DNA of 30,137 nt from IMG/VR virus record IMGVR_UViG_3300034520_000374; one strand, 5' to 3'. Source of the DNA: an uncultured virus (IMG/VR IMGVR_UViG_3300034520_000374) (lineage: Duplodnaviria > Heunggongvirae > Uroviricota > Caudoviricetes). Each line of letters opens with the position of its first letter. Within the stretch, counting starts at the first letter, position 1. The position numbers and the translations under genes were made by a program. The notes under the pieces are model-generated. The model worked only from the letters and a program-made list of their open reading frames with translations, did not search any database and had not been told where the DNA came from. Positions 2,738 to 23,806 of the stretch are shown here, one piece after another.

Positions 2738-3019
2738 ATGGATGAATTGTATCGAATCAATAGGCGATGGGTATTTGACGTTGCAAACAACATTGGATAC
2801 AATGTTGTGAGCATTGACAAAAATGGCATGGCCAAAATGGAAGAAGCGTTCAGAATTAGTGGCGACGGCAATAAAACAGTAGAATACTATAAAAATGTTC
2901 CAATAGGCGTTGTGAGAAAGTCCTTGCATCTTGTAACATTAAAGGAGCAAGGAAAACTGGAGGAATTAGAACGTGAGATTAAACCTAGAACTACAAAAAA
3001 TGGAGGGGTTCACAAGTAG
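2738..3019 (+). CDS. Hypothetical protein (93 aa)
   Basis: RBS GAGGAGG before ATG; co-oriented in the operon and overlaps the start of the primase gene. Confidence 0.8.
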   Translation: MDELYRINRRWVFDVANNIGYNVVSIDKNGMAKMEEAFRISGDGNKTVEYYKNVPIGVVRKSLHLVTLKEQGKLEELEREIKPRTTKNGGVHK

Positions 3020-3761
3020 ATATACCGAGTACGTAAAGGTTTTGAGGTCAAGAGCCGATAGCTCCAAGTTGGATGAGCTTGCAGAATTTAGGCATATGGA
3101 CAGGAAGGCTTTTGATGAAGCAGGTGTGTTCTATATCAAGGACATGGCTGAATTGCTTGTACCTGACTACTTGGACATCCTAAATGATTTTGGGCTCATT
3201 TCCAAAGTTAACGGTAAGCCAATATTTCATGAGCGGTACGTAATACCAATATTAAACACCAAAGGAAAAGTCATAAACCTAGTAGGGTACTCCTGGCTGG
3301 CTCCAGAAAGATATGTTTACGGGACATCTAAATACTACAGGCGCAAAGACACCCTGTATGGGCTGGAGAATCTGCATTTGGCGTATGAAATGGGTTACGC
3401 AGTTTTGGTTGAGGGTATTACCGATGCCATAAGGCTGAGGAGCCTTGGGATTAAAAACGTGTTTGCAAATTGCGGGACGCACAGCTCACCTTTTATAACA
3501 GCACAGTTAAACAGGTGCCGTTATGGTGTTATAAAGATACCTGATAGGGACGACGCTGGCCTTAGGGCAAATAGGCAGTGGGAGTTTAGCAGGTACATCA
3601 CAATATTTCCACCTGCAATGTATAAGGATATCGACGAGATGCTGCGTGATAATGGTAACGTTGAGTGGTTTCTGAACTACTTTAACGAATGTGTAAAAAT
3701 ACTTCTAGACGAAAGAAAAAGATGCCTGAAAGGAAAAATCCTAGAAACAACAATAATTTAA
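2973..3761 (+). CDS. DnaG-type DNA primase catalytic core (TOPRIM), no N-terminal Zn finger
   Basis: FHERYVIPI..GKVINLVG, LYGL, AVLVEGITDAI, NCGT, IPDRDDAG (DxD) and KDIDE motifs; GGAGG before GTG 2973 (alternative ATG 3000). Confidence 0.88.
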   Translation: MRLNLELQKMEGFTSRYTEYVKVLRSRADSSKLDELAEFRHMDRKAFDEAGVFYIKDMAELLVPDYLDILNDFGLISKVNGKPIFHERYVIPILNTKGKVINLVGYSWLAPERYVYGTSKYYRRKDTLYGLENLHLAYEMGYAVLVEGITDAIRLRSLGIKNVFANCGTHSSPFITAQLNRCRYGVIKIPDRDDAGLRANRQWEFSRYITIFPPAMYKDIDEMLRDNGNVEWFLNYFNECVKILLDERKRCLKGKILETTII

Positions 3762-4387: not shown

Positions 4388-5437
4388 ATGTCATTTTTGG
4401 CGGCAGCTGGTAAGAAAACCACAGATATTAGGACTTTCCTTAAAGAGGTAGGCGGAGGCAGTACTATTAAGTATAAGCCTGAAAAGGGAGTCAAGCATTA
4501 CGTTTACATTCCTTACCTGAATGTTCCTGTTCAGGACGAGGAAGGCAACGAGGTAATTCAGAAACAGGTCATCGCACTTAGCGGTAATGTCCATGAGTGG
4601 AACACGCCGGACGGCAAGTACAAAGCTTCAGTTTGCCTGAAGGACGTCGTTCGTAAGGCTGAGGACGGTACTCTTCTGAACGATGGTTCTTGTCCTCTTT
4701 GCGAAAGGGTCTCTGATGCATGGGACATTTACAGATATCGTTTGGAGATGGAGGAAAAGACCTGCGGGAAGACTGGAGAGGACCTCAAGAAACACATTGA
4801 GGGCATCAAGAAGGTCTTCGCAGACGAGCGGAAGGTGAAAGAGGCTAAACCCTACATTTACATGCTCGTTGTGCTTTACAAGACCGACAGCAAGGGTCAA
4901 CCTATCATGGGAGCCAACAATCTTCCTGAGTATGAACTCAAGATTATGAAGTTGTCGGCTTCCAGGATTGAAAAACTGCAACAGCAGATTGAAAATAGTG
5001 GAGACGAGCTTGCAGGCAGCGAGCTGATTTTCGAATACCCGAATGAGGACGACCCGAGACTTGTGGTGTCCCAGAGCACGACAGCCCCTGTATTCCCGAA
5101 CGCAAGGTTCATCACCAAGTATCCCGGTCTAGCACAAGCTATAGCCAATGATGTAGCCAAGTTTACTTGGGAAAGTATCGAAAAGGCGTTCCCGGAATGG
5201 AGCGGCATGACCACAGCTGAGGCTAATAAGGTTGTTGATGAGCTCTTCGGTAAATGGGACGAATACAAGCGCGAGCTTGCGGTTAACCCGAACGCTAGAT
5301 ACCTCGAATACGCAGGAGCCAACAAGGCTCAACAGCCTCCATTGATTCCTGGTGGGGATGCTGGAATTAAGCCACTGCCTGGAGGTATTCCTGATGTAAA
5401 TAAGCTTTTCGGTAGTGGCAAGCCTGTAAGCATCTAA
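4388..5437 (+). CDS. T4 gp32-like single-stranded DNA-binding protein
   Basis: Zn-ligand pattern H...C...CPLC (VHEW..SVCLK..GSCPLCE) like the gp32 His/Cys3 site; basic N-terminus; lies in the replication cluster; RBS AAGGAG. Confidence 0.7.
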   Translation: MSFLAAAGKKTTDIRTFLKEVGGGSTIKYKPEKGVKHYVYIPYLNVPVQDEEGNEVIQKQVIALSGNVHEWNTPDGKYKASVCLKDVVRKAEDGTLLNDGSCPLCERVSDAWDIYRYRLEMEEKTCGKTGEDLKKHIEGIKKVFADERKVKEAKPYIYMLVVLYKTDSKGQPIMGANNLPEYELKIMKLSASRIEKLQQQIENSGDELAGSELIFEYPNEDDPRLVVSQSTTAPVFPNARFITKYPGLAQAIANDVAKFTWESIEKAFPEWSGMTTAEANKVVDELFGKWDEYKRELAVNPNARYLEYAGANKAQQPPLIPGGDAGIKPLPGGIPDVNKLFGSGKPVSI

Positions 5438-5557: not shown

Positions 5558-5790
5558 TTGATAGAGTTCTTCAAGATAATTTTTGAGGAAGCTCCAAAGT
5601 ATTTAGAGTAGTAGGGGAGCGCTGGCAGCAATCCCATCAATTTATTGAGGTGGGAGGTTGTAATCGAAGGTTTGCTACAACCAAGAATGAACGCTGACCC
5701 TAAAGTTATGCTTGTGTTTATAATAATTGGATTAATTCATAACGAAATAAAGTTCCAGCTTGAGAAAAGGTTGCATAAGGAAGGAAGTGA
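5558..5790 (+). pseudogene. Possible decayed small gene
   Basis: RBS-like AAGGGTGGTG, then TTG 5558 (MIEFFKIIFEEAPKYLE), TAG TAG at 5609-5614; the same frame continues as the 5645 ORF with a hydrophobic segment VMLVFIIIGLI. Confidence 0.3.
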
Positions 5791-7124
5791 TGAGCTTAAT
5801 GAGTCAGGTAAGGTCATACAGTCCTATCAAGTTTCTACGAGTGAAGAATTTCAGGAACATCGGAGACATAACAATTAACTTTGATGAATCTCCAATAGTC
5901 TGCCTCGTAGGCGACAACGAGTCCGGTAAAACATCAATCATAAAGGCTTTTGCGGTATTAGCCCTGCACGCATACCAAAAAGACCAGAAGGACTTCATTA
6001 GAGACGGCACAAAAGGCTTCGGGATAGCATTAGGTTTACAGGACGGAACTGTAATAACACGTATAAAAGGTGTAGGAGTAAACACTTATAAGGTTGAGAG
6101 ACTGGATAAGACTGTTTGGGAGACATCCAAGATAGACGCTGGGCTTCCAGTTGAGGTTCAGGAAATAATGGGTCTTCTTGAGGAGCCTGAAACAGGCGAA
6201 TACTTGCATGTGAGAACTTATGAGGACAAATTGCTATTTATAGTTACACCAGGTAGCACAAACTACAAGGTGATGTATAACGCACTCAAGGTAGAGTACT
6301 TAACGAAAGCTATCAGGCTTGGGATTAACGAGACAAATGCGTTGAAGTCTAAACTGGACGACAATGAAAAGAGTATAAAGACACTTCTGGAAGAAGTGCG
6401 GAAGATAAAGATTTATGACATAGAGCCTGCAGTCAACATTAAGAAAAGGCTCCAAGGTCAGGTGGCTATACTCGAGAAGCTTGAGCGTGCCAAAGAGTTG
6501 TGTGATAATACACGGAGGATAGAAGAAAGACTTGGAGCAATAAATTTAATAGGCAGTGCTGGAGTCAAGGAAATTAGTCTTGGTGAAGCATTAAGATTTA
6601 AGGCTGTCTACAATCTGTTAAATTCTGTAGCGGATATCAAGAGAAGGTTAGAAGTATACGATAATCTCAGCAGCTTAAGAAGTATTGACGATACGATAAT
6701 CAGAAAGATTTTGAGCGTTAAGACAAAAATGGCTGAGCTTGAGGGTAAAAAACGGGTGGTACATGAGTTTCAAAATTTGAGTGGGTTGAAGGAAATCAAT
6801 GTAGGCGTGGCAGAAAAGCTCAGGCGTGCAGTGGCTATCAAGAGCAATATAGCTCGCATAGGTAAACGTGTAAAAGTTTATGATTTGACCAATGCGCAGG
6901 ATATAGATACCAAAGTGTTGAGTACAGTGGAGAAGTTCAAAAAGGCAGCCGGTTACTATAATAAAGCTCTTGAGACCTATAACGAGCTTAAAAATATAGT
7001 AGCAAGCATTGAGACAATTCAGAAAGAACGGGACGAGATGCTCAGGAAACTTGGGGTAAGAGTAGTTGAGTGTCCTAAGTGCAATGAGCTGATACCGTTG
7101 GAGGGGGCGAATATATTTGGATAA
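5790..7124 (+). CDS. Rad50/SbcC-like ATPase, N-terminal half ending in the CxxC zinc hook
   Basis: LRVKNFRNI strand, Walker A GDNESGKT (5910-5933), long helical arm, C-terminal CPKC (7071-7082); no signature or Walker B motif. Start likely ATG 5790 or 5799 after AAGGAAGG. Confidence 0.88.
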   Translation: MSLMSQVRSYSPIKFLRVKNFRNIGDITINFDESPIVCLVGDNESGKTSIIKAFAVLALHAYQKDQKDFIRDGTKGFGIALGLQDGTVITRIKGVGVNTYKVERLDKTVWETSKIDAGLPVEVQEIMGLLEEPETGEYLHVRTYEDKLLFIVTPGSTNYKVMYNALKVEYLTKAIRLGINETNALKSKLDDNEKSIKTLLEEVRKIKIYDIEPAVNIKKRLQGQVAILEKLERAKELCDNTRRIEERLGAINLIGSAGVKEISLGEALRFKAVYNLLNSVADIKRRLEVYDNLSSLRSIDDTIIRKILSVKTKMAELEGKKRVVHEFQNLSGLKEINVGVAEKLRRAVAIKSNIARIGKRVKVYDLTNAQDIDTKVLSTVEKFKKAAGYYNKALETYNELKNIVASIETIQKERDEMLRKLGVRVVECPKCNELIPLEGANIFG

Positions 7125-8067
7125 GGCAAGGATATTAATTTACGGAGACTTGCATTTAAGCTCGAAAAACTATGGAGCACATATAGACTACCCAAGAGAG
7201 TCTTTGCATTACTTTGAGGAGATAGCCAATGTAGCAGAGCGTGAAGGTGCAACCCATGCAATAGGTTTAGGGGACTTCACATTTGGAAGGTTCCACACAC
7301 TGGAGTACCGGATTAGCGTTGAGAAGGTGCTGGATAGGCTTTGGAGGATTACCGAGGGTAGGCACTATATGCTTAAAGGTAACCATGACTCAGCAACTTA
7401 CGGTATGACAGAATACGAGTATTACTGCAAGAAGGGTCTTCTTAAGCCTAGCGAGAACCTTTCAATAGGCGGTATTAATATATCAATGGTGGATAGCGGA
7501 AAGTACGAAAAGATGGACATAATACCTCCGGAAGAAGGTAAGACCAATGTAGTTCTGGCGCATGACTATTTCAAGTTCAAGGATACCCAGCTTCCTAACT
7601 ATGGGCAAGCAATAGAATTGGATGAATTTAGCAGGTGGTTTGGTGTAGACCTTTTGGTGTGTGGTCACATACACAATTTCGAGAGCTTCTCAGGTATGGT
7701 TGTGGACGGTTACAGGGCACGGAAAATGACCGTCATATATCTTGGGTGTATGGCCAGACCAGCATACAGGGAAGGATTCATGCAGGACATAGGTAAGCTT
7801 CTAATGCTCGATGTAGACGGCGAGAAGGTTGAGGCGGGCTTTATTGATGTGCCCTTATGGGCTTTGGATGAATCATTCAATCTTGAGGCAAAAGCGCGGG
7901 AAGAAGAGCAGAGTAAGCATTTAGTGGATATATCAGACATAGTAAAAAGGTTAGATGAGCATGAGAGGAATATAGGAAATCCTGAGGATTTAATTATGTC
8001 GCTTGAGGATATAGATATCAGGTACCGTAAAAAAGCGGTAGAACTGTTGCAGGAGGCACTTAAATAA
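7117..8067 (+). CDS. sbcD: Mre11/SbcD-like metallophosphoesterase nuclease
   Basis: GDLH, GDF, GNHD, LAH and GHIH motifs; RBS GGAGGGGG before TTG; overlaps the Rad50-N stop codon. Confidence 0.9.
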   Translation: MDKARILIYGDLHLSSKNYGAHIDYPRESLHYFEEIANVAEREGATHAIGLGDFTFGRFHTLEYRISVEKVLDRLWRITEGRHYMLKGNHDSATYGMTEYEYYCKKGLLKPSENLSIGGINISMVDSGKYEKMDIIPPEEGKTNVVLAHDYFKFKDTQLPNYGQAIELDEFSRWFGVDLLVCGHIHNFESFSGMVVDGYRARKMTVIYLGCMARPAYREGFMQDIGKLLMLDVDGEKVEAGFIDVPLWALDESFNLEAKAREEEQSKHLVDISDIVKRLDEHERNIGNPEDLIMSLEDIDIRYRKKAVELLQEALK

Positions 8068-8106
8068 TATTAGTGAAAGATTTGAAAATGTGGAGGTGCA
8101 TTTGAG

Positions 8107-8517
8107 ATGGAAATTAGTCTCGAGAGGATAAAGAAGTATAACGAGACGCTTAAGGCTTACAATGAGAAGGGGGCACAGTTAAAAGCTGAGTTATCATTCA
8201 ACATAAATGAGCTTAACAAGCTGTGTCAGGAACTATCGCAGGAGCTTGGGGTGGAGGTCACAACGGATAACATCGAGGAAGTGTACAAGAACTACGTAAG
8301 CAAGATTGAGGAAACCTTGAGAGTCGGTGAGGAGATTTTTGAACGTATACGTGCTGAGGAGCAGGGTACAGTAGTGCAGAGTAGCGAAGGCATTGAGCCA
8401 GATGATGCTGGCGCAGTAGAACCAATTGGCATTGGCAGTGGAGATGATAAAGGAAACCTGCTTGGGAAAGACTTTCAACTGCCTAATATGTTCGGCAAAG
8501 GAACTATAAAAATTTAG
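8107..8517 (+). CDS. Small coiled-coil protein with disordered tail
   Basis: GGAGGTG RBS; first ~85 aa are helical/heptad-like with an ELGV turn; acidic linker; ends FQLPNMFGKGTIKI. Confidence 0.85.
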   Translation: MEISLERIKKYNETLKAYNEKGAQLKAELSFNINELNKLCQELSQELGVEVTTDNIEEVYKNYVSKIEETLRVGEEIFERIRAEEQGTVVQSSEGIEPDDAGAVEPIGIGSGDDKGNLLGKDFQLPNMFGKGTIKI

Positions 8518-8538
8518 CGTGTGAAAGGAAGGTAGAAC

Positions 8539-9762
8539 ATGAAAGTATCTTTAAGCGCACTGATAAATGCAGTTTATAAGGTAGGAGCTTTTACAGAAGG
8601 CCAGAAGAGCATCCCTGGTGTGCTGTTTGACATCAGAACTGATGAGTTTCGCGTTTGTTATTCTGACGGGCGTAAAGCTATCATCTCTAAGCTACCTTTG
8701 GTGAACGAGGAAGGATTTGAAGGTAAGTTAGTTATACCCTGGAATAATCTTTTAGCAGTGATTAATGCCAATCAGCCAAAAGGTATGATTTTTACCGATG
8801 AAATTGAGCTTGTCATTGGAGATGGCGTAATAGTAGTTGAGGCTGACAAGAAGATTAAAGTAAAGAGCAGTGAGGATGAAGTAGTAGACAAAGTAGTTTC
8901 CAGGCTGTCACAGAAGATGGTGTACCATAAGACTGAGGAAAGTGTCAAGTACGGTATATTAACTCGTGTGGATTATGATAGTATCTTTGAAAGTGCCGAT
9001 TTCGACCTTTGGGACAAAGAGACATTTAGGAGTATGCTTAGCAGGGCGTCTTCCGATAAGCTTGGCATGAGTTATATTTCATCATCCAGGCAGGCTTGCT
9101 TTGCAATCAACGTGGCTTTTGTAACGAACATTCCTATTGATGAGCAGATTTCGTTTGGGTTTACTGTATCGGCAGCACTTGCATCAGCAATCGTGAATAT
9201 TCTATCCAAGACACCTGGGGATAAGGTTCGCATAAGCGTATCGGAGAATAGGTACATGAACATCGTATCGGATGATGCAACCACAGGAATTTGGTTCGAG
9301 ATGCCTCCAGGGAATAAATCCGACCTAGCAGTACTCAGCAGTTTTGAAGGTAAGGAATATAACAAGTACAGGATGGCGTTCTGCAGACCAGTATTGGAGA
9401 ACGTGCTCGAGTGCATTATAAGCTCCGACAATAACGAGAAGGTAGAAATGAGTTTAACAGACATTAACGAAGGAGAGCCAGCAATAAGAATCTCAACTAC
9501 GAGCAGCGGAGCATCAATGGGCAATGATTTCAGGGTTGTGATTGAGCATCTGGTGGATAATGTCGGCGATGTAAAAGACCTGAAGCTGCCGATTAATCTT
9601 AAGGTGCTTAAGGATATGGTTAACAACTGCATCGAGATGTATATTGTGTTTGACATTGCAAAAGACGATAGAGGCACCTACTTAAGGGTTGGGGATATCG
9701 TTGGTGCAGGTGAAAATGACCTTAAATTAGGTACCATTCACTACACCATGATTGGAAAGTAG
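8539..9762 (+). CDS. DNA sliding clamp (DNA polymerase III beta-like)
   Basis: 407 aa. N-terminus KVSLSALINAVYKV..IPGVLFDI..FRVCYSDG..EGKLVIPWNNLLAVI follows the beta-clamp domain I pattern; AFCRPVLENVL and INLKVLKDMV follow domain III. Replication context. Confidence 0.7.
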   Translation: MKVSLSALINAVYKVGAFTEGQKSIPGVLFDIRTDEFRVCYSDGRKAIISKLPLVNEEGFEGKLVIPWNNLLAVINANQPKGMIFTDEIELVIGDGVIVVEADKKIKVKSSEDEVVDKVVSRLSQKMVYHKTEESVKYGILTRVDYDSIFESADFDLWDKETFRSMLSRASSDKLGMSYISSSRQACFAINVAFVTNIPIDEQISFGFTVSAALASAIVNILSKTPGDKVRISVSENRYMNIVSDDATTGIWFEMPPGNKSDLAVLSSFEGKEYNKYRMAFCRPVLENVLECIISSDNNEKVEMSLTDINEGEPAIRISTTSSGASMGNDFRVVIEHLVDNVGDVKDLKLPINLKVLKDMVNNCIEMYIVFDIAKDDRGTYLRVGDIVGAGENDLKLGTIHYTMIGK

Positions 9763-9775
9763 AGCAAGCAGTGAG

Positions 9776-9810
9776 AAATAGCAGGCTACATCTATAGCCT
9801 GCTATTTTTA
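9776..9810 (+). terminator. Rho-independent terminator
   Basis: AAATAGCAGGCTA-CATCTA-TAGCCTGCTATTT followed by T-rich sequence. Confidence 0.85.
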
Positions 9811-9844
9811 TATATTTTTGCTACATGTAAATGACAAGTTAGCG

Positions 9845-9873
9845 ATGTCACCATACGCTAAAGTATTTATAGT
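9845..9873 (+). promoter_or_regulatory. Possible sigmaA-like promoter
   Basis: ATGTCA-N17-TATAGT between the terminator and the GGGAGGT RBS of ORF 9902. Confidence 0.35.
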
Positions 9874-9901
9874 GTAAAAACGAATTTGGGAGGTATAGCG
9901 T

Positions 9902-10294
9902 ATGGTGAGCTTTATTTATGGGGTTTTATCCTTTGTAGCTATAGCTGGAGTGTCCTGTTGGGTTAGTGCCTGCATCATGAGGGTCGAGCACGAGATTGCT
10001 AAGGGCAAGGGTATAGGGCGTATAGGTAAAAATAGAATAAGGGGTATAATTTGGAAAGAAATCAAGAGGGGCTTTACGGTAGCTTTCTTTGGCATGTGGA
10101 TTTCTCTTGAGTACCTTATGAAGTGTAATCATCCAGACCATATTCTTGGAAGTATGCTGTTGAATTTGAACGTAGCAAAAATTATCGAGTTGCCTATGGC
10201 CATTGTATCAGGCATTTTGTGTGTGCTATTTACTGTAGCAGGGTATTACATCTACATGGAAATGGAGGAGAGAACTCATGCCCATCAAAGATAG
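9902..10294 (+). CDS. Small membrane protein (about 3 TM segments)
   Basis: GGGAGGT RBS; three hydrophobic segments; overlaps the start of Rad50-C. Confidence 0.8.
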   Translation: MVSFIYGVLSFVAIAGVSCWVSACIMRVEHEIAKGKGIGRIGKNRIRGIIWKEIKRGFTVAFFGMWISLEYLMKCNHPDHILGSMLLNLNVAKIIELPMAIVSGILCVLFTVAGYYIYMEMEERTHAHQR

Positions 10295-10961
10295 GGTGTC
10301 AGAATTTATTAATCAGGTTGACGAGCTGGAGGTACGCCAGCTCGCCAATATAAAGACAAAGGAGAAGCTTGAGAAAAGTGTGCAGAGGCTCATTGAGGAG
10401 TCTAAGGTTACAGCAGAAGAATTAGAGATAGTCACTAACGCAGTAAATATTTTACACCAGATAAGTGATGAGGCCATTCAGAAGTCGTACGAGTTTATTG
10501 CGGAAAACATAAACGCAGCTCTAGAGCGCATATTCACAAACACTACTCGTCGGATAAGGCTCAAGGAATATACGAGGGGGCAATATCCACAGCTTGAAGT
10601 TGAATTAATCGTTGAAGGCGGCAAGACAAGGTCGTTGCGGGCGGATAGCGGTCACGGTATCATGCAAATTATATCGCTACTTTGCATACTTTGCATAATC
10701 GTAATAACAAAAAGCAGAAGGACGCTGTGGATTGACGAGATACTTTCAGGGCTGTCGGCTAATTCGAGAATGATTATTGACGAAATACTCTGGAGCTTTG
10801 CCGAAATAGGCTTCCAATTCGTTATTTCAGAACACGGCTTCGTGCCCAAAGGAGCCAAAGTCTACAAGCTAAAAATGGAAAACGGAATCAGTAGGATTGA
10901 AGACGAATACATCGAACAGGACGGTGTATACCTTGACCTCAGCGGTAATTCGGTAAATTAA
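10278..10961 (+). CDS. Rad50/SbcC-like ATPase, C-terminal half
   Basis: ~80-aa coiled coil, ABC-signature-like DSGHG (10644-10658), Walker B/D-loop LWIDEILSGLS, H-loop ISEH; no Walker A; GGAGGAG RBS. Confidence 0.88.
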   Translation: MPIKDRVSEFINQVDELEVRQLANIKTKEKLEKSVQRLIEESKVTAEELEIVTNAVNILHQISDEAIQKSYEFIAENINAALERIFTNTTRRIRLKEYTRGQYPQLEVELIVEGGKTRSLRADSGHGIMQIISLLCILCIIVITKSRRTLWIDEILSGLSANSRMIIDEILWSFAEIGFQFVISEHGFVPKGAKVYKLKMENGISRIEDEYIEQDGVYLDLSGNSVN

Positions 10962-10983
10962 CATATCGTGGAATGGCGGTGGT

Positions 10984-11178
10984 GTGATGGCTAAAAAGGC
11001 AGTTAACAAGGGTAAAGTTAGCAAGAAAAAGAAAAGCGGTGTCATGGGTGTATTAATGAGTAACAAGAAACTCAGGTATATGGCATCGCTAAAGCCATTA
11101 GTTTACATGACGTATCTGCTTTACGGGATACTGGCTTTGACAGCAATAGGAATCCTCATTAGTGTGATTAGGAAGTGA
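10984..11178 (+). CDS. Small membrane protein with basic N-terminus
   Basis: Lys-rich N-terminus and C-terminal TM helix; GGCGGTGG RBS-like site. Confidence 0.7.
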   Translation: MMAKKAVNKGKVSKKKKSGVMGVLMSNKKLRYMASLKPLVYMTYLLYGILALTAIGILISVIRK

Positions 11179-11182
11179 GCCA

Positions 11183-11485
11183 ATGGACACAGAATTAATA
11201 CCTTTAGAGGTGATGCGGGATATCCTTGGTTTGGGGCTGGTTTTACTGTATTTTTTAATTCCAACTATTGTAGTGGTAACCACTGCGGCAACTATCAGAT
11301 ACTATAACAGAGTTCTAAAGAGCAAGCCAAACAAGGCAAAGACACATAGCAGTAAACCAAAAGAGGCGAATAAATTTGATAAAGGCAACGTTGTAGAAGT
11401 AGAGGACAGCGGTAACAGTGTTGAGGTTGAGGTAAGTGGGCTTAAATTAGATTTTGATGAGCATGGAAAAATATCAAAGAAGTAG
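11183..11485 (+). CDS. Single-pass membrane protein
   Basis: N-terminal TM segment ILGLGLVLLYFLIPTIVVV and hydrophilic tail; AGGAAG RBS. Confidence 0.75.
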   Translation: MDTELIPLEVMRDILGLGLVLLYFLIPTIVVVTTAATIRYYNRVLKSKPNKAKTHSSKPKEANKFDKGNVVEVEDSGNSVEVEVSGLKLDFDEHGKISKK

Positions 11486-11519
11486 TATAAATAGGCTAAT
11501 GTATAAGGGGGTCAGTAAA

Positions 11520-14500
11520 TTGTATTACGAAAGGCAGAAGCTTGTAGACAAATATGCCAATAAGCTACTTAAGGTCTTAAACAACATACTGCCTAAGTTG
11601 CCCAATGAGGCAGAGTTCAGAAGGCATGTAGATAGGCTTATAGATGACTTCAGACAAGAAGCAGGATTACCAGAATTCAATAACATGGTTGAATTCACAA
11701 TAGGTTCAGGACGAGCGGATTCGGTTCTACATCGTGTAATAATTGAATACGAGCGTCCAGGAACACTTACACCAGACTTAAAAGACAGGACAACAGCACA
11801 TGCAGTCGGGCAAGCCGAGCAGTATATCAAGGAACTTTCGGAAAAGCTAGCCTTCTCAGGCAGGTACATGAGTGCCATAATTACGGATGGCTATTACATC
11901 ATATTCGCTCGGTGGCGTGAAGGCAGGTTTTATGTAGACCCACCAATTAAGTTGCACTTCCAGTCGGCACGCCAGCTCTTTAGTGTACTTGACGGTTTAT
12001 CAGTAAGTTTGCCATTAACTGTTGACAATCTATACGCTGACTTTAATTTAGAGAACCCTCGTGCAAGAAGAATCATTAGAAATCTTTACGATGGCTTTAA
12101 GGAAAATCTAGACAACGATAAGAAAATAGTTGAGCTACTATTCAAGCAATGGCGGTTATACTTTAGCGAAGCTATTGATGCCGATAAAATATTTAGTGAG
12201 AACTTCAGCAGTATTCGGGATTGGGCACGGAGTGCAGGTATTGAGCTCAAGAACTCCAGGGATGCGGAGCATTTCATTTTCATCATGAACACGTACTTCT
12301 CCTTACTTGCGAAATTTCTTGCCTACGCATCACTTGTAAGGCACATGTACAGCATATTTGGTGCACCGATGTTTGAGAGGCTGGCTACACTTGATTCGGA
12401 TTTGCTGTACGAGGAGATGCTTAGGATTGAGTCCGGCGAGCATTACAGGAGGCTCGGCATCAATAACCTCCTGGAAGGGGAATTAATGATTTGGTATATA
12501 AAGGGTTGGAACAAGCATGTAGAGTCAGCCATTCGCGATATGGTTCAGCGTCTGAGTGAATACGACCCTGGGACGTTGTCAATTATACCTGAAGAAACAC
12601 GAGACCTTTTCAAGGGACTTTACCACAGAATTATACCGAGAGAAGTTCGGCATGCACTTGGTGAGTATTACACGCCAGACTGGCTGGCTCAGCATACATT
12701 GCTTTGTGCAGATGAGGAGTTCTTCATATCAGATGATTACGCAAGGCTACGGGATAAGCTTCTCACAAAGCGTTGGCTTGACCCAGCATGCGGTTCTGGA
12801 ACATTCTTAATTATGGTAATTAAGCGCATGAAGGAAATAGGTAGGCAGCTAAATATAGACGATGGAACACTGCTAGACATCATTACGCATAATGTGGTTG
12901 GCTTTGACATTAACCCATTGGCAGTTCTTGTGTCAAGGGTAAACTATATACTCGCAATACAGGATTTACTACATGCAAGAAAGCATGAGGTAAACATTCC
13001 AGTTTATTTGACGGATTCTATTCTGATGTGTGCAGTTAAAGAGGGCATTGTCAGCAATACTCACGGAGACATTAGAGTATACAACATGCCACTTGTATTA
13101 AAGACATTTGAATTACCGGAGGTAATTTGCAAAGATAGAAGATTCGATGAGTTTACTCTGATTTTAGAGGGTTGTATAGATAACGAGTACCCAACAGAAA
13201 GCTTCCTTGGACGTGTGAAGAAAGGGCTTGGTTTAGGTGAAGATGAATTTAATCCAGTAGTTGAAGCTCTTCTACAAGATTTGTATGATGTAATGCTCAG
13301 ATACCATAAGAGGAACATGAACGGTATTTGGGCAAGGCTCTTGAAGAACAATTTTGCACCAATAGCGGAGGAACAATTCGATTATATTATGGGTAACCCA
13401 CCTTGGGTAGCGTGGAAGAACTTGCCCAGCATGTACAGGGATAGTGAAAAGGCATTCAGAGATATATGGGACTATTACGGTTTACTGGAGTTTGATGGGA
13501 AAATAAATGTTAGCATAGGGAGCAAGCAAGCTGACTTATCGTTTCTGATGACTTACGCTGTCGCAGATGCTATGCTTAAGAATGGCGGAAAACTTGCTTT
13601 TGTTATACCACAGTCAGCTTTTAGGGCACATGGAGGTTATGGATTCAGACAATTCAAGATTAGGAAAGGTAACGGTTATATACCTCTAAAAATTGAAGGT
13701 GTGGACGATTTAACCAGCATGCAACCTTTTGAAGACGCATCCACATTCACTTGTGTGTTTTCAATGGTCAAAGGAGAAAGCACTGAATATCCTGTTAGAT
13801 ACTTCGTGTGGCATAGGGACGGAGCAATAGACTATAACTTAAGCCTCGAGGAGATTAAAAGCAGGTGCACAATAGGGGAGTGCACGGCAATTCCATCAGA
13901 TGTAGAGGATGAGCAATCACGTTGGGTAATTACTAGTGATGATGGGCAAGCTATAAGCAAATTGCTCAAGAGCTCTTATTATGATGCTCATAAAGGAGCT
14001 ATGACGTTAGCAAATGCAGTATACTGGGTAGATATATTGGAAACCAGACCTGATGGTGCTCTTATCATAAGTAATTCCACAAAAGGTAGTAAGATTGAGG
14101 TAGACCAAGTAACGGTAGACATAGAAGCAGAATTCATTTACCCGTTGATACGTGGTAAGGACATAGGATACTACGGAGTAAAGGTTGATAAGCATATAGT
14201 ATTTCCGTACGACGATAGCGGTGTAGTACCACTGAGTAAAATGCAGATAGACTATCCAAAAACTTATAGGTACTTCAAAAAATTTGAGGAGATTCTTTTG
14301 AAACGACCAGACGTGATAACAGGATTATGTAAGAAAGGCTTTCCATTTTACGTGTGCTACTCTGCTAAGGATATAATTTCTGAGTGGAAGGTGGCAATGT
14401 CCAGAGTGGGTAGTGTTAGGGCAGCAGCTATAAGCAAATTGAACGGAAAGGTTTTCATCTTAGACTCTGGTGTAACCTATGTTAGCTGCAGTGATGAAAA

Positions 14501-15041
14501 TGAGGCTTATTACTTGGCAGGCATGATAAATTCTTCGATATTTCAAGCATTGGTGAACTCAAAAATAAACAAGGAGGTAAACGTTGGTTACCCAAGGATA
14601 CTTAAAGAATATTACATCCCAACATTCAATCCATCCAACGAGCTCCACCTCAAGATGGCTGAGCTCTCCAAGAAGGCTCACGAGGCCGCAGCAGTTAATG
14701 ATAAGGAAACCTTACTGTCTGTACAAAAAGAAGTTGATGAGACAGCAAGACAAATTTGGGGCTTAACGGAAGAAGAAGCCGTCGGCATAATAGCTACCTC
14801 CAGAATAAACCTTGCTGAGCAGCTGGAGAAAGAGCTGAGTGGAGAAGATGGAGAGGCACAGGAAGATATGGTGGAAGACGCAGATGAAAATGCCGATAAA
14901 TCTGAGGTTCAAGTTGTAGAAGAGCCTAAGAAACCTAGAAGAAAACGTGGCAACAGCTCCAGCAAACCTAAGAGGTCAAAGCTTGATACGTTGATGGGCT
15001 TCTATGACGCTATATCAAAGTTAAATGACTCTGACAAGTAG
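11520..15041 (+). CDS. Type IIG/IIL-like restriction-modification fusion (N6-adenine methyltransferase with N-terminal PD-(D/E)xK-like domain and C-terminal TRD)
   Basis: Motif X LGEYYTPDWLA, motif I LDPACGSGTFL, motif IV GNPPW, GGKLAFVIP, TRD-like PLIRGKDI..YYLAGMINS; N-terminal GRADS..IIEYERP. RBS AAGGGGGT favours TTG 11520 over 11454. Confidence 0.9.
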   Translation: MYYERQKLVDKYANKLLKVLNNILPKLPNEAEFRRHVDRLIDDFRQEAGLPEFNNMVEFTIGSGRADSVLHRVIIEYERPGTLTPDLKDRTTAHAVGQAEQYIKELSEKLAFSGRYMSAIITDGYYIIFARWREGRFYVDPPIKLHFQSARQLFSVLDGLSVSLPLTVDNLYADFNLENPRARRIIRNLYDGFKENLDNDKKIVELLFKQWRLYFSEAIDADKIFSENFSSIRDWARSAGIELKNSRDAEHFIFIMNTYFSLLAKFLAYASLVRHMYSIFGAPMFERLATLDSDLLYEEMLRIESGEHYRRLGINNLLEGELMIWYIKGWNKHVESAIRDMVQRLSEYDPGTLSIIPEETRDLFKGLYHRIIPREVRHALGEYYTPDWLAQHTLLCADEEFFISDDYARLRDKLLTKRWLDPACGSGTFLIMVIKRMKEIGRQLNIDDGTLLDIITHNVVGFDINPLAVLVSRVNYILAIQDLLHARKHEVNIPVYLTDSILMCAVKEGIVSNTHGDIRVYNMPLVLKTFELPEVICKDRRFDEFTLILEGCIDNEYPTESFLGRVKKGLGLGEDEFNPVVEALLQDLYDVMLRYHKRNMNGIWARLLKNNFAPIAEEQFDYIMGNPPWVAWKNLPSMYRDSEKAFRDIWDYYGLLEFDGKINVSIGSKQADLSFLMTYAVADAMLKNGGKLAFVIPQSAFRAHGGYGFRQFKIRKGNGYIPLKIEGVDDLTSMQPFEDASTFTCVFSMVKGESTEYPVRYFVWHRDGAIDYNLSLEEIKSRCTIGECTAIPSDVEDEQSRWVITSDDGQAISKLLKSSYYDAHKGAMTLANAVYWVDILETRPDGALIISNSTKGSKIEVDQVTVDIEAEFIYPLIRGKDIGYYGVKVDKHIVFPYDDSGVVPLSKMQIDYPKTYRYFKKFEEILLKRPDVITGLCKKGFPFYVCYSAKDIISEWKVAMSRVGSVRAAAISKLNGKVFILDSGVTYVSCSDENEAYYLAGMINSSIFQALVNSKINKEVNVGYPRILKEYYIPTFNPSNELHLKMAELSKKAHEAAAVNDKETLLSVQKEVDETARQIWGLTEEEAVGIIATSRINLAEQLEKELSGEDGEAQEDMVEDADENADKSEVQVVEEPKKPRRKRGNSSSKPKRSKLDTLMGFYDAISKLNDSDK

Positions 15042-16504: not shown

Positions 16505-17014
16505 ATGGGTGCTTACGGTTCGCCTGAATTACTACCAGTAGATGGTGGTGGAGAACTTGTAAAATGCAACTCTTGCGGCAACGAGTATTACAAGACAATG
16601 GCGAAATGCCCACAATGTGGTAGCTTCAACGTTGAAAATTGCAGGTATGCCGGATTTTGGTTGCGGTTTGTAGCGAATCTGGTCGACGGAGTAATTATAA
16701 CAGTTATCAGTGCAGTTTTAGAAGCAATACTTAAAGATGGTATATTGTATGCGATACTTTTAATACTTCCTTGGCTTTATTATGCCGGATTTGAGTCATC
16801 AGAATCAATGGCTACACCAGGAAAGAAACTCCTTAATATTAAAGTAGTCGACCTCAACGGCAACAGGATTTCATTCGGGAGGGCTACTGCAAGGCACTTT
16901 GGAAAAATACTATCAGCGTTAATACTTTATATAGGCTTCATAATGGCAGGTTTTACGAAACGCAAACAGGCACTACATGACATAATTGCGAAATGCTTAG
17001 TAATAAAAGTTTAA
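16505..17014 (+). CDS. RDD family membrane protein with N-terminal zinc ribbon
   Basis: CNSC..CPQC, YAGFWLRFVANLVD, ATPGKKLLNIKVV, KQALHDIIA; AAGGAGG RBS. Confidence 0.92.
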   Translation: MGAYGSPELLPVDGGGELVKCNSCGNEYYKTMAKCPQCGSFNVENCRYAGFWLRFVANLVDGVIITVISAVLEAILKDGILYAILLILPWLYYAGFESSESMATPGKKLLNIKVVDLNGNRISFGRATARHFGKILSALILYIGFIMAGFTKRKQALHDIIAKCLVIKV

Positions 17015-17067
17015 GGGTACAGAATGGATGGTCGCGAATCAAAACCTGTATACATGGAGGTGGGGCT

Positions 17068-17385
17068 ATGAAGAAGGTTTTCATCTGCTCACCATACAGA
17101 GGTAACATAGAGTTTAACAGGCAACGAGCTTTAGAATACTGCCGATACGCTGCAGTGAAGGGCTATTTACCTATAGCCCCTCACTTATATTTCACGCAAT
17201 TTCTCAGTGAGGACAATGATGAGCGCGACTTAGGAATTTCAATGGGCTTGGAATTAATGGATATATGCGACGAGGTATGGGTGTGTGGAGAACATATTTC
17301 AGAGGGCATGAGGATTGAGATAGAGTACGCGAAATCAGCACATAAACCTATTTATTATATAAATAAGGACACAAAAAGTCCATGA
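17068..17385 (+). CDS. DUF4406-like (nucleoside 2-deoxyribosyltransferase-fold) protein
   Basis: KVFICSPYRG, PIAPHLYFTQFL, CDEVWVCG..ISEGMRIEIEYA; GGAGGT RBS supports ATG 17068. Confidence 0.85.
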   Translation: MKKVFICSPYRGNIEFNRQRALEYCRYAAVKGYLPIAPHLYFTQFLSEDNDERDLGISMGLELMDICDEVWVCGEHISEGMRIEIEYAKSAHKPIYYINKDTKSP

Positions 17386-17851: not shown

Positions 17852-17909
17852 AAAAATAAAGACTGCACCACTTTGATATTATCTGGCGGTGCAGTTTTGT
17901 TTTTATTTT
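17852..17909 (+). terminator. Rho-independent terminator
   Basis: AAAGACTGCACC ... GGTGCAGTTTT followed by GTTTTTATTTT. Confidence 0.75.
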
Positions 17910-17977
17910 ATGACAGGTCATACGACGCTAGAAGGAATTTGAGGTTAGAAGATAAGGAAGAAAAGGGATGGTGCAAT

Positions 17978-19078
17978 ATGGGCAGTGTAATAAACTTAGA
18001 TAAGCTCATCAGTAGTATGATACACTTTCCAAAAGTAGACGGTATACCACTATATACTCGTGTTGACAATCAGATAGATGAATATATAAGAAGTCAACTT
18101 AACAAAAGCCCTAAATGGGTGGAGTACTCTAAAAGGATTTATGGCTCACCCGATAACATCAGGAGAGTGTTTATAACTTACAAAGGGGTTTATGTGCATT
18201 TATATAGGCCTGTAGCAGGAGGAAAAGACAAATCACTTGTCAGAAAAACCTTGTTTTCACCAGCATTCGATGTGGTGTACAACGATATAATGACCAGTGC
18301 CATGACAGGTGCAAGGTCCAAGTATAAAGTTAGGCGATACGGTTTGAGGGCACTGTATAAACCTTGGGTGTGCTCCAATGTAGAAGAAGTCTACTTTGAC
18401 TGGACCTTATTCTTAAGTGAGGATATCAGGAATATAGGTTTCGGAGACCTTTTAATGTATTACAAGAGCGGAGAAAAATCCGTTGAACCGATTAAAACTA
18501 TATTCGAAGCAGCTTGTTTGTCAGACGGGTGCAAGCTGGCAGATAGGTATCCAAGGTTAAAATGCATCGGGTACATTAGCAGCCTGGAGGAAATTTACAA
18601 TGCTATCCCAATCAAGCCTGGTGCGGATTCTCTGGATGATATGATGAAGCCTTGGTACAACAATAACGTGCTCATTGAGGCGGTTAGGAATGGCTCTTGT
18701 AATGCGGCTGTATATGACATACCTGGTGTGCCGAAGCTCAATGCAAAATACTCTGTGAAAGATGGAATATACCTCTTCGATAGGGATGTACTTAAGGATT
18801 ATTTCTTGGCACTTGAGGAGAGAATTAAGCAATACCAGAAAGGCAAACGGCTCAGCGAAGTAGAAAAACAGAAAGAGGAACTGATTAAGAAGGTAAAGAA
18901 CACCAAGAGCGGGCTGGAGCTTCTAATAGACGAGATATACGCCAAAGAAGGTGCCGAAAAGGCCCGGCTAGCCTTGAGAATCAGTTTTGATGGGCTGAAG
19001 AAATCAGAAATAGAGGCAATACTGAACGAGATGAGCACAGAAGGAAATGAAAGGTACAGAGCATTATTAGGTTTATAG
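17978..19078 (+). CDS. Hypothetical protein sharing a domain with the downstream ATPase
   Basis: ATG 17978 after AAGGGATGGTG; the track start at 17873 lies inside the terminator. 366 aa with a helical C-terminus. Confidence 0.85.
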   Translation: MGSVINLDKLISSMIHFPKVDGIPLYTRVDNQIDEYIRSQLNKSPKWVEYSKRIYGSPDNIRRVFITYKGVYVHLYRPVAGGKDKSLVRKTLFSPAFDVVYNDIMTSAMTGARSKYKVRRYGLRALYKPWVCSNVEEVYFDWTLFLSEDIRNIGFGDLLMYYKSGEKSVEPIKTIFEAACLSDGCKLADRYPRLKCIGYISSLEEIYNAIPIKPGADSLDDMMKPWYNNNVLIEAVRNGSCNAAVYDIPGVPKLNAKYSVKDGIYLFDRDVLKDYFLALEERIKQYQKGKRLSEVEKQKEELIKKVKNTKSGLELLIDEIYAKEGAEKARLALRISFDGLKKSEIEAILNEMSTEGNERYRALLGL

Positions 19079-19094
19079 AAGGGAGGGATGAGCC

Positions 19095-22000
19095 ATGAGC
19101 GTACCAAAAGACATTGTAGAGAGACGAGCAAAGCTTATAAGTGGGCTATCTGGGCCTGACGAGAGAGCTCGCAGGGTTAGGTATAACATGTATTTAAGGT
19201 ACGGAGACCTTGCAATAGCTATCTACAAAGACCCAGTAAAAGAGGGGTTAATACGTGGAAACCCTGATACATTTGCTGTATTGACAGACCCTACAGTAGC
19301 TTCGTGGGCTTATGTTGGCAAGAGTAGTGATGAGTTCAGGCTAGCCGCAGATAAGTATCCTGAGCTCAATAAGCTGTTTTCTAATATTGAGGCTTTACAA
19401 AATGGCATAGCCAAAATAGTGTCAATTATAGGCAGCGAAAGGAAGGATATATCATACGAGGAATTTGTTAAAGGCATAACGGAATTTAAGCCAAACAATA
19501 TAGTTCCTCTTATGGATGACATAGATAAGACCGAGGAAGAGCAATTTATAGACACGGACTCCTACGAAAACCATGACGATATAGAAATAGATGAGTCGGA
19601 GTACTATGTTGACGATGAGGAAGCTGAGGTGGAGCCAGAAGTAGAGACTGAAGCGGAAATAGAGCCAGAAGAAAGTAGCGGAAACCTCTGGGAAGATGAG
19701 CCAGACCCAGAGCTAGAGGCCAACACAGCAAGAGTGATGTATGTTTACAAGGATTTATATGAGGCTGGCTTTGAGCTACATGTCCCTTACGGTATTCTCG
19801 TAAAAGAGGGCGTATTAAGGTTAGTAAATGGTAGGACGGAAGTTAAGAGCAACGCTTCATTTGCTAGGATATACGAGTTAATAAATAGTATAACAAACAA
19901 GTTTTTAGTTCAATCGGAAGTAGTAAATGGGATACCTGCTAGCAAGCTCAGGGACATAGAAATGAGGATGGGGACAACATATTATCCCGCATTTCAGCTT
20001 GGCAATTTATACGGGATAATAGGGGACAAAAAGGTAAAAACGTGGAGTGAGCTGGCAAGCATCCTGGAGCCAGAAGTAAGGAGAAATATAAAAGCCAACT
20101 TGGAGGCTGGGAAGGACATAAGGTTCATCACGGATGCGCTCACGACATCAATAGTTGTATCGGAGTTTGACTCTAAGGTAGCGTTAAAACTTCGGATTAA
20201 TATAGGTAATAGATTGCTGGACACTAATCTTTTCAAGAGCGAATACGAGAAAAGAAGAAGCAGCATAATGGCAGGTATAGGAGAGCTCTTCCATATTCAG
20301 CAGCTACGTACGGGTGTAGTGGAGGTAATAATAGTTTTTAACAGAGCAGCATACCATAACAGACCTATATTTGCTTATGAGGCTGTCCAAGAGTTGAAAA
20401 AGCGCGGACGTGAGCCTAGCATATCCAATATGATTTTAGGTCAGGATACATCCGGAAAAATTTATATAAACAACCTCAACAGGCAGAACGCGAGCATAAT
20501 ATTGATTGGCGCAGGCCCTCGTTCAGGGAAAGGCGTACTAACCTTAAATCTTGTTGGAGCTATTTTATCAGATGGTTATCCTCTAGTTTATGTAGATGGT
20601 AAGCCGGATATGGCTAAGGAACTTTGGAGGGTTGCCGAAAAGCATGGTATTAAGCCAGCAGTTTGGGATGCTTTTGACCCTCACGATAACAGGCTCGGAA
20701 CAGGAGCTCCAAAAGAGGTAAGGGCTGAGAACAGTACACTGCTCGGTATACTGGCATATCTAAAGGTTTTACAGCTGATGATGGCTGCTGCACACCTCAG
20801 GTCGACCAAAGGCATAATGGTAGGTGGCGCAGATAAAAGACCATTCTTCGTATTTGATGAGGTATTAGCGGTTCAACAGAACCTTAAAGGATGCTGGGGG
20901 TACGTAGTTAGTAAAGCTAAACAAGCTAAGAATAAGCAAGGTGACGAAGTAACCGAGTGGTGCAAAGCCATAGTAAAATGGGTAGAGGCACTATCATACA
21001 GTTTATCAGGAACATTAAATTCACAGCTTCCTATGAGCGGCATATCTACGGTTTGGCTATTCCAAACTATACAGCCTACTACATGGAGCGGGCTCAAGCT
21101 TAATGGTTTGGACAGCGATTTTGACTTATTCAAGCATCCTATTATGGCCAGAACTTCCATTAAAATACTCGGTAAAGGCACCACAGACAGTGAATATGGT
21201 TTGGGCAACAGAGAAATAAAAGGAAATAAGATTGTAGCGGAATTAATTGCGGCTGAGGGAGGCAGACACTTTGCTTATACGGAAGTGCAGAAAATTACGG
21301 ATATTGAGCAGATAAAGATATTTAAGCCATACCTGGTTCTTAATAGTGCAGAGCCCGATGCTGACTGCGTGAGGGAGCTCAAAAACAATGTATCGAGCGA
21401 GGTATGGAACGTAATAGCTCCTGGAGGAAGGTTGCATCCAGCCGCAGGCTTTGAGGGATTCCTACAATTACTTGGGCCACAGGTTATAGGCAACCTGGCT
21501 TTAGGCAGGGCATTTCTAGAAGAAATAATGCAAGCAGTAGGGTTAGCCGATAAATACAGTTCAGTTGAGGAATATCTGTATGATGCTTCCGTCGAGTCTT
21601 TCAAGTCTCTTGGCAGCCTGGTGCAGGACCCTGAGGTAGACGAGGAAGCTGGGCCTGATGGTTACATGTATGTCACTGGAGAAGGAGAAAAAGGAAGTCC
21701 AGAGGGATTTAGCTATATCACTTCTAATAAGTTGGATGATACACAACAAAAGAGTCAGATTGACACTTTTGGGGTACCATATAAGGTTGTTGGTGGTGCA
21801 AGAGGTGCTGTAGATGAGCAGTTTGAGATGGAGAGACAGGCGCGGGAAGCTCTTGAGAACAGCATAGAAGTTGAGACTGATGAAGGCGTAAGCACAGACG
21901 GTATGGAGGAAGTTACAGATAACGATTTACTGAGGGCAGTAGAGCAAGGTGAGCTAGACGCCAAAGAAGCTCTCAAGATACTTGTAGAAAAGCGGATGAG

Positions 22001-23793: not shown

Positions 23794-23806
23794 TGAGGTG
23801 AGAGAA

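Follow-up and report, generated by a model that had tools for sequence, protein, structure and literature searches.

Rad50, SbcC and SMC proteins are defined by a long arm in which one chain folds back on itself. A stretch of 30,137 nucleotides from an uncultured virus (IMG/VR record IMGVR_UViG_3300034520_000374; Duplodnaviria, Heunggongvirae, Uroviricota, Caudoviricetes), the whole of which we call the window, raises the question whether such an ATPase can also be built from two separately encoded halves that dispense with the returning strand. In the window, the N-half and the C-half of a Rad50-type ATP-binding cassette (ABC) protein lie in two open reading frames (ORFs), R50N (ORF 5790) and R50C (ORF 10278), about 3.1 kb apart and each preceded by a ribosome-binding site of its own (AAGGAAGGAAG for R50N and GGAGGAGAG for R50C). 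As judged by sequence comparison, a Rad50-type ATPase is genuinely split at its hook here, and the split is conserved. The split-Rad50 block consists of the following elements.

5790..7124, + strand: R50N, Rad50/SbcC-type N-half of 444 amino acids, with ABC lobe I carrying Walker A, then the base helix, the arm of repeats and the zinc hook (Pfam AAA_23, AAA_15)
5910..5936, + strand: Walker A of R50N, GDNESGKTS (G41-S49)
6423..7052, + strand: arm of R50N, about five tandem helical repeats of 37-40 residues (residues 212-421)
7071..7082, + strand: zinc-hook motif CPKC of R50N (C428-C431)
7117..8067, + strand: Mre11/SbcD-type nuclease of 316 amino acids (Pfam Metallophos)
8107..8517, + strand: ORF 8107, 136 amino acids, with an N-domain that is helical (about 90 residues), then a low-complexity linker, and LPNMFGKGTIKI as the C-terminal peptide
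8539..9762, + strand: three-domain beta sliding clamp of the DnaN type, 407 amino acids (by AlphaFold2 and Foldseek)
10278..10961, + strand: R50C, Rad50-type C-half of 227 amino acids, a short helix followed by ABC lobe II
10647..10658, + strand: signature-like SGHG of R50C (S124-G127)
10734..10739, + strand: Walker B of R50C (D153-E154), followed by the D-loop SGLS
10833-10835, + strand: H-loop of R50C (H186)

Judged by its motifs, neither half can be an ABC ATPase alone, because Walker A is found only in R50N, and the signature, Walker B, D-loop and H-loop only in R50C. Walker A residues G41, N43, E44, G46, K47 and S49 are invariant in 24/24 aligned N-halves, and the alignment shows no signature motif, Walker B or H-loop in R50N itself. 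Conversely, R50C has no Walker A in its alignment, and S124-G125-H126-G127, D153-E154, S157-G158-x-S160 and H186 are invariant in 27/27 sequences. The usual Rad50 signature is SGGE or SGGQ; SGHG is the variant of R50C. The hook belongs to the N-half, where C428, C431 and G432 are again invariant (24/24). The CxxCG motif sits 13 residues before the R50N stop, in a C-terminus that reads ...ECPKCNELIPLEGANIFG, and the chains of relatives end 8-15 residues after it. In the AlphaFold2 (AF2) model, the hook CxxC lies in a beta hairpin that follows the last arm helix.

The head fold could be compared with solved Rad50 structures for lobe I. R50N matched AAA_23 (1.2e-10) and AAA_15 (4.9e-10) in Pfam, and its AF2 model had a predicted local distance difference test score (pLDDT) of 70.9 and a predicted template-modelling score (pTM) of 0.36. 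Lobe I of this model (residues 11-158) aligned over 137-140 residues, at 18-24% identity, with the heads of T. maritima, P. furiosus and M. jannaschii Rad50 and E. coli SbcC (3qf7, 3qku, 5f3w, 6s6v), with Z of 11.0-11.1 and a root-mean-square deviation (rmsd) of 3.1-3.6 A. The best Foldseek matches were the Rad50 structures 3aux and 1f2u (27-29% identity), and the best matches by sequence in the PDB were 1f2t_A and 1us8_A, which are Rad50 N-half chains of 147-149 residues. Weak matches in sequence and structure led to PtuA and OLD, with GajA also among the weak ones. For R50C, we found a match to phrog_15167 'ATPase' (4.5e-6) and no Pfam family.

A further hallmark is the adjacent nuclease. 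The Mre11 frame begins with a TTG at 7117 that overlaps the R50N stop by 8 nt, and its product matched Pfam Metallophos at 4.4e-9 as a calcineurin-type phosphoesterase. Since all five phosphoesterase motifs (D11, H13, G52-D53, G88-N89-H90-D91, H149 and G183-H184-x-H186) are invariant in 19/19 sequences, the protein should be an active nuclease of the Mre11/SbcD type. A phmmer search against the PDB returned weak matches of the Vps29 type (E ~0.08) and none to a solved Mre11, and the Mre11 label accordingly draws on the motifs and the gene context.

Is this arrangement a property of one contig or of a lineage? We fetched 83 stretches of DNA around relatives of the C-half, here numbered with the prefix L. 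Both halves were present in 43 of these loci, always on the same strand, 2568-7048 bp apart (median 3354 bp), and no ORF among the loci was matched by both half profiles. The order N-half, Mre11, ORF 8107 homologue, clamp, C-half was kept in 39/43; the other four (L075, L076, L079, L081) have the same order with an unassigned stretch of ~2.4 kb at the clamp position. Mre11 adjoins R50N in 43/43, and a homologue of ORF 8107 follows it, ahead of the clamp where one was detected, also in 43/43. The 40 loci without an N-half mostly offered short upstream sequence, or showed the distal part of the block continuing until their sequence stopped. When 1.84 billion representatives were searched with a profile of the C-half, there were 488 matches at E <=1e-3 and 137 at E <=1e-10. 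Among the best 150 of the 488, all of 45-336 amino acids, there was no fused Rad50, and a search limited to longer proteins likewise gave no fused form, although this counts as weak evidence. The N-half family comprises 649 matches (331-504 amino acids among the 120 listed), the C-half family 314 (221-302 amino acids among the 120 listed). One relative is complete (264.6 kb, direct terminal repeats, CheckV completeness 100), and it contains exactly one match to each half.

The split also extends to distant relatives. Two IMG/VR records of 129 and 158 kb (L084 and L085), found by a locus scan with the C-half alignment, encode C-halves only ~25-30% identical to that of the window, and they keep the gene order: N-half with a CDNCG or CGNCG hook, Mre11, in L084 a dUTPase, a helical protein (311 and 246 amino acids) whose tail is acidic or of low complexity, an ORF of 380 or 427 amino acids, and the C-half. 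Besides the Mre11-like enzyme downstream, L084 encodes another calcineurin-type phosphoesterase, a shorter one, immediately ahead of its N-half (L084:4092-4832). In GenBank phages, tblastn searches with R50N, R50C, the L084 C-half and P0275 found nothing, a single-sequence search of IMG/VR returned no close relatives, and a genome scan yielded two short contigs, both from one Lachnospiraceae metagenome-assembled genome. The lineage is so far known only from metagenomes.

A frameshift, intron, intein or assembly artefact was considered as the origin of the two frames and is rejected on account of four conserved genes between the halves, the separate ribosome-binding sites, the agreement of 43 loci from many assemblies and collinear contigs: region 5700-11000 is spanned by contigs of three further runs of one study, which are collinear with it and show no joints. 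An earlier sequence-only reading of this DNA had come to the same view of the split, arguing from the separate ribosome-binding sites and the intervening genes, and it had named a fused gene in close relatives as the observation that would speak against it; the profile, longer-protein and locus comparisons produced none. The elements that it had listed (both halves, Mre11, ORF 8107, clamp, terminator, membrane gene) are all where it had placed them. Its description of ORF 5790 as a frame with Walker A and a long arm that stops just past CPKC is borne out by the motifs and the AF2 helices, and the alignment of C-halves bears out that of ORF 10278 as a short coiled coil, which we put at about 60 helical residues, followed by signature, Walker B and H-loop. 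The proposal of a Rad50 split at the hook hence stands; of its two extensions, ORF 8107 as a third subunit is plausible and unproven, and a transcriptional switch at the C-half was not borne out, as discussed below.

Several observations weigh against a trans-assembled Rad50. SMC and RecF heads fit R50N lobe I as well as those of Rad50. At the position that we take to be that of the Q-loop, the glutamine is not conserved. The residues found there are R142-T143-Y144-E-D146, with an AF2 pLDDT <50 at residues 143-171. PDB matches of R50C are weak and non-specific (C-part of the SMC3 head at E 0.078, ABC transporters at E 0.026-0.9), and its Rad50 identity rests on motifs and context for this reason. 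The 43 loci are not independent, since they comprise 32 distinct tail combinations, which we grouped by hand into 16 clade representatives, window included. In six loci (L024, L026, L040, L046, L064, L082), no other gene of the block was detected in the 5.3-9.5 kb upstream of R50C, and the N-half may lie elsewhere in the genome or be absent. Finally, the N-half frame is broken in two in 2/43 loci, L047 (6257-7384) and L052 (2510-3471), where a frameshift, a sequencing error or decay could be the cause. Taking these points into account, we still regard a Rad50 that is split and assembled in trans as likely.

If the chain ends at the hook, what becomes of the arm? The AF2 model of R50N shows helices at residues 168-205, 212-256, 264-291, 301-332, 338-361 and 374-420, so that about 250 helical residues lead outward (168-420), whereas R50C has only about 60 residues of variable helix ahead of its conserved head part; the returning strand is indeed too short, as the sequence-only reading had noted. 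Residues 212-421 fall into about five tandem repeats, each 37-40 residues long and formed by a helix of ~30 residues and a loop. Comparison of sub-alignments with hhalign gave probabilities of 91-96% (E 1e-6 to 2e-9) among repeats r1, r2 and r3 and of 52-91% for h2 and r4 against the other repeats. The base helix (168-211) reached <=17% against the repeats, and the helices of ORF 8107 and R50C reached <=32% against R50N segments. Between N-half relatives, there are indels of 30-56 residues, roughly the length of one repeat. The number of repeats, as far as the alignments go, is variable between relatives, and an arm built of repeats is newly recognised from them. The R50N model, with its low pTM, does not show how the repeats pack, and alignments of the arm, by Foldseek and by structure, had a meaningless rmsd of 13-90 A. 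Because there is no Rad50 return strand beyond the first 40-60 residues, the arm needs to be stabilised in another way.

Comparison with known systems helps to define what is unusual here. With T4 gp46/gp47 and SbcC/SbcD, the split Rad50 shares Walker A, signature, Walker B and H-loop, a helical arm with a CxxC hook, and an adjacent calcineurin-type nuclease with five motifs; with gp46/gp47, it also shares the location in a phage replication and recombination module. A match to gp46 at the level of sequence was not obtained by tblastn in GenBank phages. In those systems a single chain forms an intramolecular antiparallel coiled coil, whereas here there are two genes, with lobe II encoded 3.1 kb downstream, an arm formed by a tandem array of repeats, and SGHG as the signature. 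By sequence and model, the split protein would thus be a Rad50 in its motifs, hook, partner and lobe I fold, and would depart from Rad50 in having no antiparallel arm of one chain. A two-chain head has its closest precedent in the engineered catalytic domain of P. furiosus Rad50 (1F2T, 1F2U, 1US8), in which separate N- and C-chains form one head, as we propose here. That protein is a laboratory construct with arm and hook deleted; the split in the window is natural and conserved, with arm and hook on the N-half. The short-armed or hook-bearing ABC ATPases RloC, Lamassu LmuB, PtuA and OLD/Gabija, which belong to defence systems, likewise have a Rad50/SMC-like head, some with a CxxC hook, as is reported for RloC (PMC3458546). 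They differ from the split Rad50 in being single chains with their own lobe II that are linked to toxins or other nucleases, whereas an Mre11-type partner in a replication module is found here.

Splitting of essential multi-domain enzymes into separate genes is not without parallel in large phages. According to passages of PMC7824862, jumbo phages encode RNA polymerase beta/beta-prime and a minimal Pol III alpha as separate, sometimes distant genes, whose products are thought to reassemble. The same passages call SbcC/SbcD practically universal in jumbo phages, and they mention splits for RNA polymerase and Pol III alpha and not for SbcC. In full-text literature searches, which had subscription journals and supplements outside their scope, we found no description of a split Rad50 or SbcC.

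From these elements, we infer the following working model. R50N would provide ABC lobe I with Walker A, the base helix, the repeat arm and the CxxCG hook, at which its chain ends, and R50C would provide a helix of ~60 residues that pairs with the R50N base helix, plus lobe II. The two halves would join in trans to form one ATPase head; two such heads could dimerise on ATP, and zinc might link two R50N chains at the tip via their CxxC pairs. The predicted nuclease, whose translation is coupled to that of R50N, would dock at the base of the arm. The arm itself may be stabilised by packing of the repeats against each other, by a second R50N, or by the co-encoded ORF 8107. For ORF 8107, the helical N-domain might sit on R50N, a weakly predicted placement, and the flexible tail would probably tether the complex to the partner that is bound by the tail of a single-stranded-DNA-binding protein (SSB), because it ends in the same kind of peptide as the putative SSB of this phage. 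Altogether, a module for end processing and recombination of an uncultured large phage with a two-polypeptide Rad50 is what we consider the probable and best explanation of the locus.

The role of ORF 8107 is the least certain part of this model. Pfam and PHROGs gave matches at chance level only for its family, and in the Atlas it fell among viral hypothetical clusters only, with a poor model (pLDDT 0.58). Its N-domain of ~90 residues is conserved (N12, C40, L43, N55 and G74 invariant in 22 sequences), and it is followed by a low-complexity linker of highly variable length and, in most clades, by a short C-terminal peptide; the clades of L001, L010 and L047 have nearly no linker or tail. We predicted a three-chain complex of R50N, R50C and residues 1-95 of ORF 8107, the last being the scored partner. 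The score was 0.49 (runs 0.50, 0.49 and 0.49), against 0.00 for all three controls, one of which replaced R50N; the runs agreed in >=79% of contacts with a partner pLDDT of >=73, and the verdict was 'weak support'. The mark for such a verdict is passed by 116/157 solved complexes and by 2/215 mismatched pairs, and scores at <=0.60 are those of 18/157 solved complexes and of both passing mismatches.

Further clues come from the C-termini, for which the upstream part of the module has to be considered.

3-1865, + strand: family A DNA polymerase
2973-3761, + strand: Toprim primase
4388..5437, + strand: ORF 4388, putative SSB of the gp32 type, 349 amino acids, directly upstream of the block, with a C-terminal tail like that of ORF 8107

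ORF 4388 is a putative SSB and no more than a lead as such: H69, C83, C102 and C105 are invariant, the gp32 family PF08804 was matched by 2/17 family members (best E 0.017), and the PDB held no match. It ends IPDVNKLFGSGKPVSI and ORF 8107 ends LPNMFGKGTIKI (5390-5437 and 8470-8517). Between clades the two tails change together, with ELDEALGL accompanying DLDDLLGL in L075 and ...LFGSGKPVSI accompanying ...MFGKGTIKI as a further example (tails compared across L003, L004, L055, L065, L075 and others). Among the 16 clade representatives, tails from the same locus had a similarity of 7.44, compared with 3.83 (sd 1.15) for shuffled pairs (p ~0.0016), in a statistic that ignores the relatedness of the clades, which weakens it. 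Many relatives of R50C also end in a ...GNVIxI-type peptide, and 34/66 distinct R50C C-termini fit [ILVM]x[ILV]-COOH, against 31/472 background ORFs; the R50C of the window does not fit. Tails of ORF 8107 and R50C are not alike within loci (1.25 vs 3.56 shuffled), and those of ORF 4388 and R50C are not significantly alike (p 0.13). A rule of at least one tail per complex was tried and dropped, as the strict pattern occurred on R50N, ORF 8107 or R50C in only 15/32 locus combinations. The coupled tails suggest, from their sequences, a common docking site on a hub protein. In our reading, ORF 8107 serves the split Rad50 as an adaptor or accessory subunit and shares this docking site with ORF 4388.

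Downstream of ORF 8107 lies the clamp, and between the clamp and R50C the window contains two more elements.

9774..9809, + strand: terminator-like hairpin with a 15-bp stem and a T tail
9902..10294, + strand: small membrane ORF of 130 amino acids, a local insertion between clamp and R50C

The clamp has no sequence-level family in Pfam, and its fold was recognised from an AF2 model of high confidence (pLDDT 90.8, pTM 0.87), which Foldseek matched to DnaN structures at E ~1e-18 with a TM of 0.69-0.72 and 9-13% identity. The clamp, hairpin and membrane gene that had been read from the letters are thus all present. From the clamp stop to the R50C start there are 515 bp in the window. In 34/49 loci, the frames of clamp and C-half adjoin or overlap (<=68 bp), and in the other 15 they lie 428-7439 bp apart; the spot varies from overlap to up to 7.4 kb of other genes (window 9763-10277; L042, L017, L037, L008, L014, L044). 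The membrane ORF has no family by Pfam or PHROGs, and homologues occurred in three loci only (L002, and weakly L008 and L014). Because the clamp and C-half abut in most loci, the terminator and membrane gene of the window appear to be one of the many insertions that this variable site has received, and not a conserved regulatory design. Separate transcription of the C-half as an activation switch, as the sequence-only reading had suggested, is hence not general.

In the window, a DnaN-type clamp (8539-9762) occurs alongside a sole polymerase of family A (3-1865), and relatives encode a DnaX-like subunit (L086, L087). Family A polymerases usually work without a clamp. The DnaX-like clamp-loader subunit was found in 2/3 related records, elsewhere than the block (PF13177, E 4e-33 and 7.5e-23). 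At the clamp position of the distant L084, an ORF of 380 amino acids had Atlas feature matches of 0.95-0.96 to viral clusters, one of which carries DNA_pol3_beta on 50% of its members; in hhalign, the clamp profile reached this ORF with a probability of 2%.

How do the alternatives fare in the light of these data? One of them denies that the halves are partners, so that R50N would be a stand-alone protein of the AAA_15/OLD or RecF kind and ORF 10278 an unrelated or decayed ATPase fragment. It could appeal to the weak sequence matches of R50N to OLD and PtuA, to some N-half relatives whose source name is 'ATP-dependent endonuclease of OLD family', and to an R50C without a Pfam family. However, neither half is complete and their motifs complement each other, both are clearly constrained and have hundreds of relatives of uniform length, their order is fixed in 43/43 loci, the complete genome has one match to each, and a hook with an adjacent Mre11 is a hallmark of Rad50. 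We therefore consider this possibility very improbable. A different suggestion would make the clamp a working part of the nuclease, that is, a clamp-tethered Mre11-Rad50 machine of five genes with ORF 8107 and the tails as clamp-binding adaptors. The clamp does lie between the halves in 39/43 loci, with a clamp-like ORF at the same place in L084, the only polymerase of the window is of family A, and the tails contain xP(D/N)xNx[LMVI]F, resembling what we take to be the consensus of clamp-binding peptides. Contacts of this sort have precedents, since an interaction of archaeal Mre11-Rad50 with PCNA is reported (PMC6009593), as is one of RecBCD with the beta clamp (PMC13254535). Yet an ordinary replisome clamp fits the data, because relatives encode the DnaX-like clamp-loader subunit far from the block, and the clamp was not detected in 4/43 loci. 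T4, too, has its clamp gene beside genes 46 and 47, and no link between them is known. Such a machine seems unlikely to us.

The remaining alternatives concern ORF 8107 and accept the split. The arm could be a modular rod in which each R50N repeat binds one helical hairpin of ORF 8107, giving a four-component Mre11-Rad50 with a hetero-oligomeric arm. If this were true, the number of repeats would set the arm length, and several SSB-like tails would tether the nuclease to a replisome hub, be it the clamp or whatever partner the SSB tail binds. Completion of the arm by copies of ORF 8107 had been proposed in the sequence-only reading, and it is favoured by the survey of neighbourhoods that this reading had called for, with a homologue in 43/43 loci with both halves, and by docking that depends on R50N. 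On the other side, a docking pass of this class is wrong in more cases than it is right if the guess was not already likely, and the score carries no interface. ORF 8107 bears no similarity to the arm repeats or the R50C helix in hhalign, so nothing suggests that it is a detached piece of the return strand, and its tail resembles that of the putative SSB. In distant loci, its counterpart is positional only (L084, hhalign E 0.0025, probability 12%); L084 ORF 7311-7802, a candidate counterpart, turned out to be the dUTPase. We consider the modular rod a long shot, and completion of the arm by ORF 8107 in any form improbable as well. Alternatively, the repeats might form a self-sufficient rod, by zig-zag packing into helical bundles or by parallel pairing with a second R50N up to a shared hook, and ORF 8107 would be a separate adaptor or mediator whose SSB-like tail could compete for, or recruit to, the partner of the SSB tail: clamp, polymerase, helicase or SSB itself. 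This is in agreement with repeats that are real, variable in number and unrelated to ORF 8107, with the co-variation of its tail with that of ORF 4388, with the similar ...GNVIxI-type peptides on many R50C relatives, with the near absence of linker and tail in L001, L010 and L047, and with its place directly upstream of the clamp. But the docking score depends on R50N, ORF 8107 lies inside the Rad50 block in all 43 loci, and AF2 of R50N alone (pTM 0.36) did not confidently predict a compact arm fold. A split Rad50 whose arm does without ORF 8107 is, to our mind, a serious possibility that falls short of even odds. For ORF 8107 itself, an adaptor role is as likely as completion of the arm, and we place it among the physical subunits of the trans-assembled split Rad50 only tentatively.

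Every long ORF of the window is encoded on the + strand, and the window's content is that of a phage replication and recombination module that includes the region of the split Rad50. One more gene directly follows the block.

11454-15041, + strand: N6-adenine methyltransferase of the Eco57I/MmeI-like type, 1195 amino acids

Pfam called no nuclease domain in this methyltransferase, and its C-terminus is rich in lysine and acidic residues. Farther downstream, 16993-17385 and 23798-24796 encode a nucleoside 2-deoxyribosyltransferase-like protein (DUF7768, phrog_355) and an HD-domain protein, which could hint at salvage of nucleotides or modification of DNA bases. No Pfam or PHROG family was found for three large ORFs (401, 1255 and 431 amino acids, at 17873-22862 and 24898-26193).

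In Rad50, SbcC and SMC proteins, it is still debated how the arm and hook pass ATP-driven changes on to DNA binding and cutting. The phage protein described here is a natural, conserved and widespread variant in which, as we read its two genes, the return strand is absent and lobe II is a free subunit. It would offer a ready test of what purpose a return strand serves, of whether a hook can function where a single chain ends, and of whether repeats or a helper protein can make up an arm. Two large phage protein families that now carry no annotation or a wrong one, one sometimes called 'OLD family endonuclease' and the other unnamed, would gain a name, and Rad50 would otherwise be overlooked by annotation pipelines in such phages. 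For specialists of SMC and Rad50 proteins, a conserved Rad50 without return strand and with a repeat-built arm would come as a surprise.

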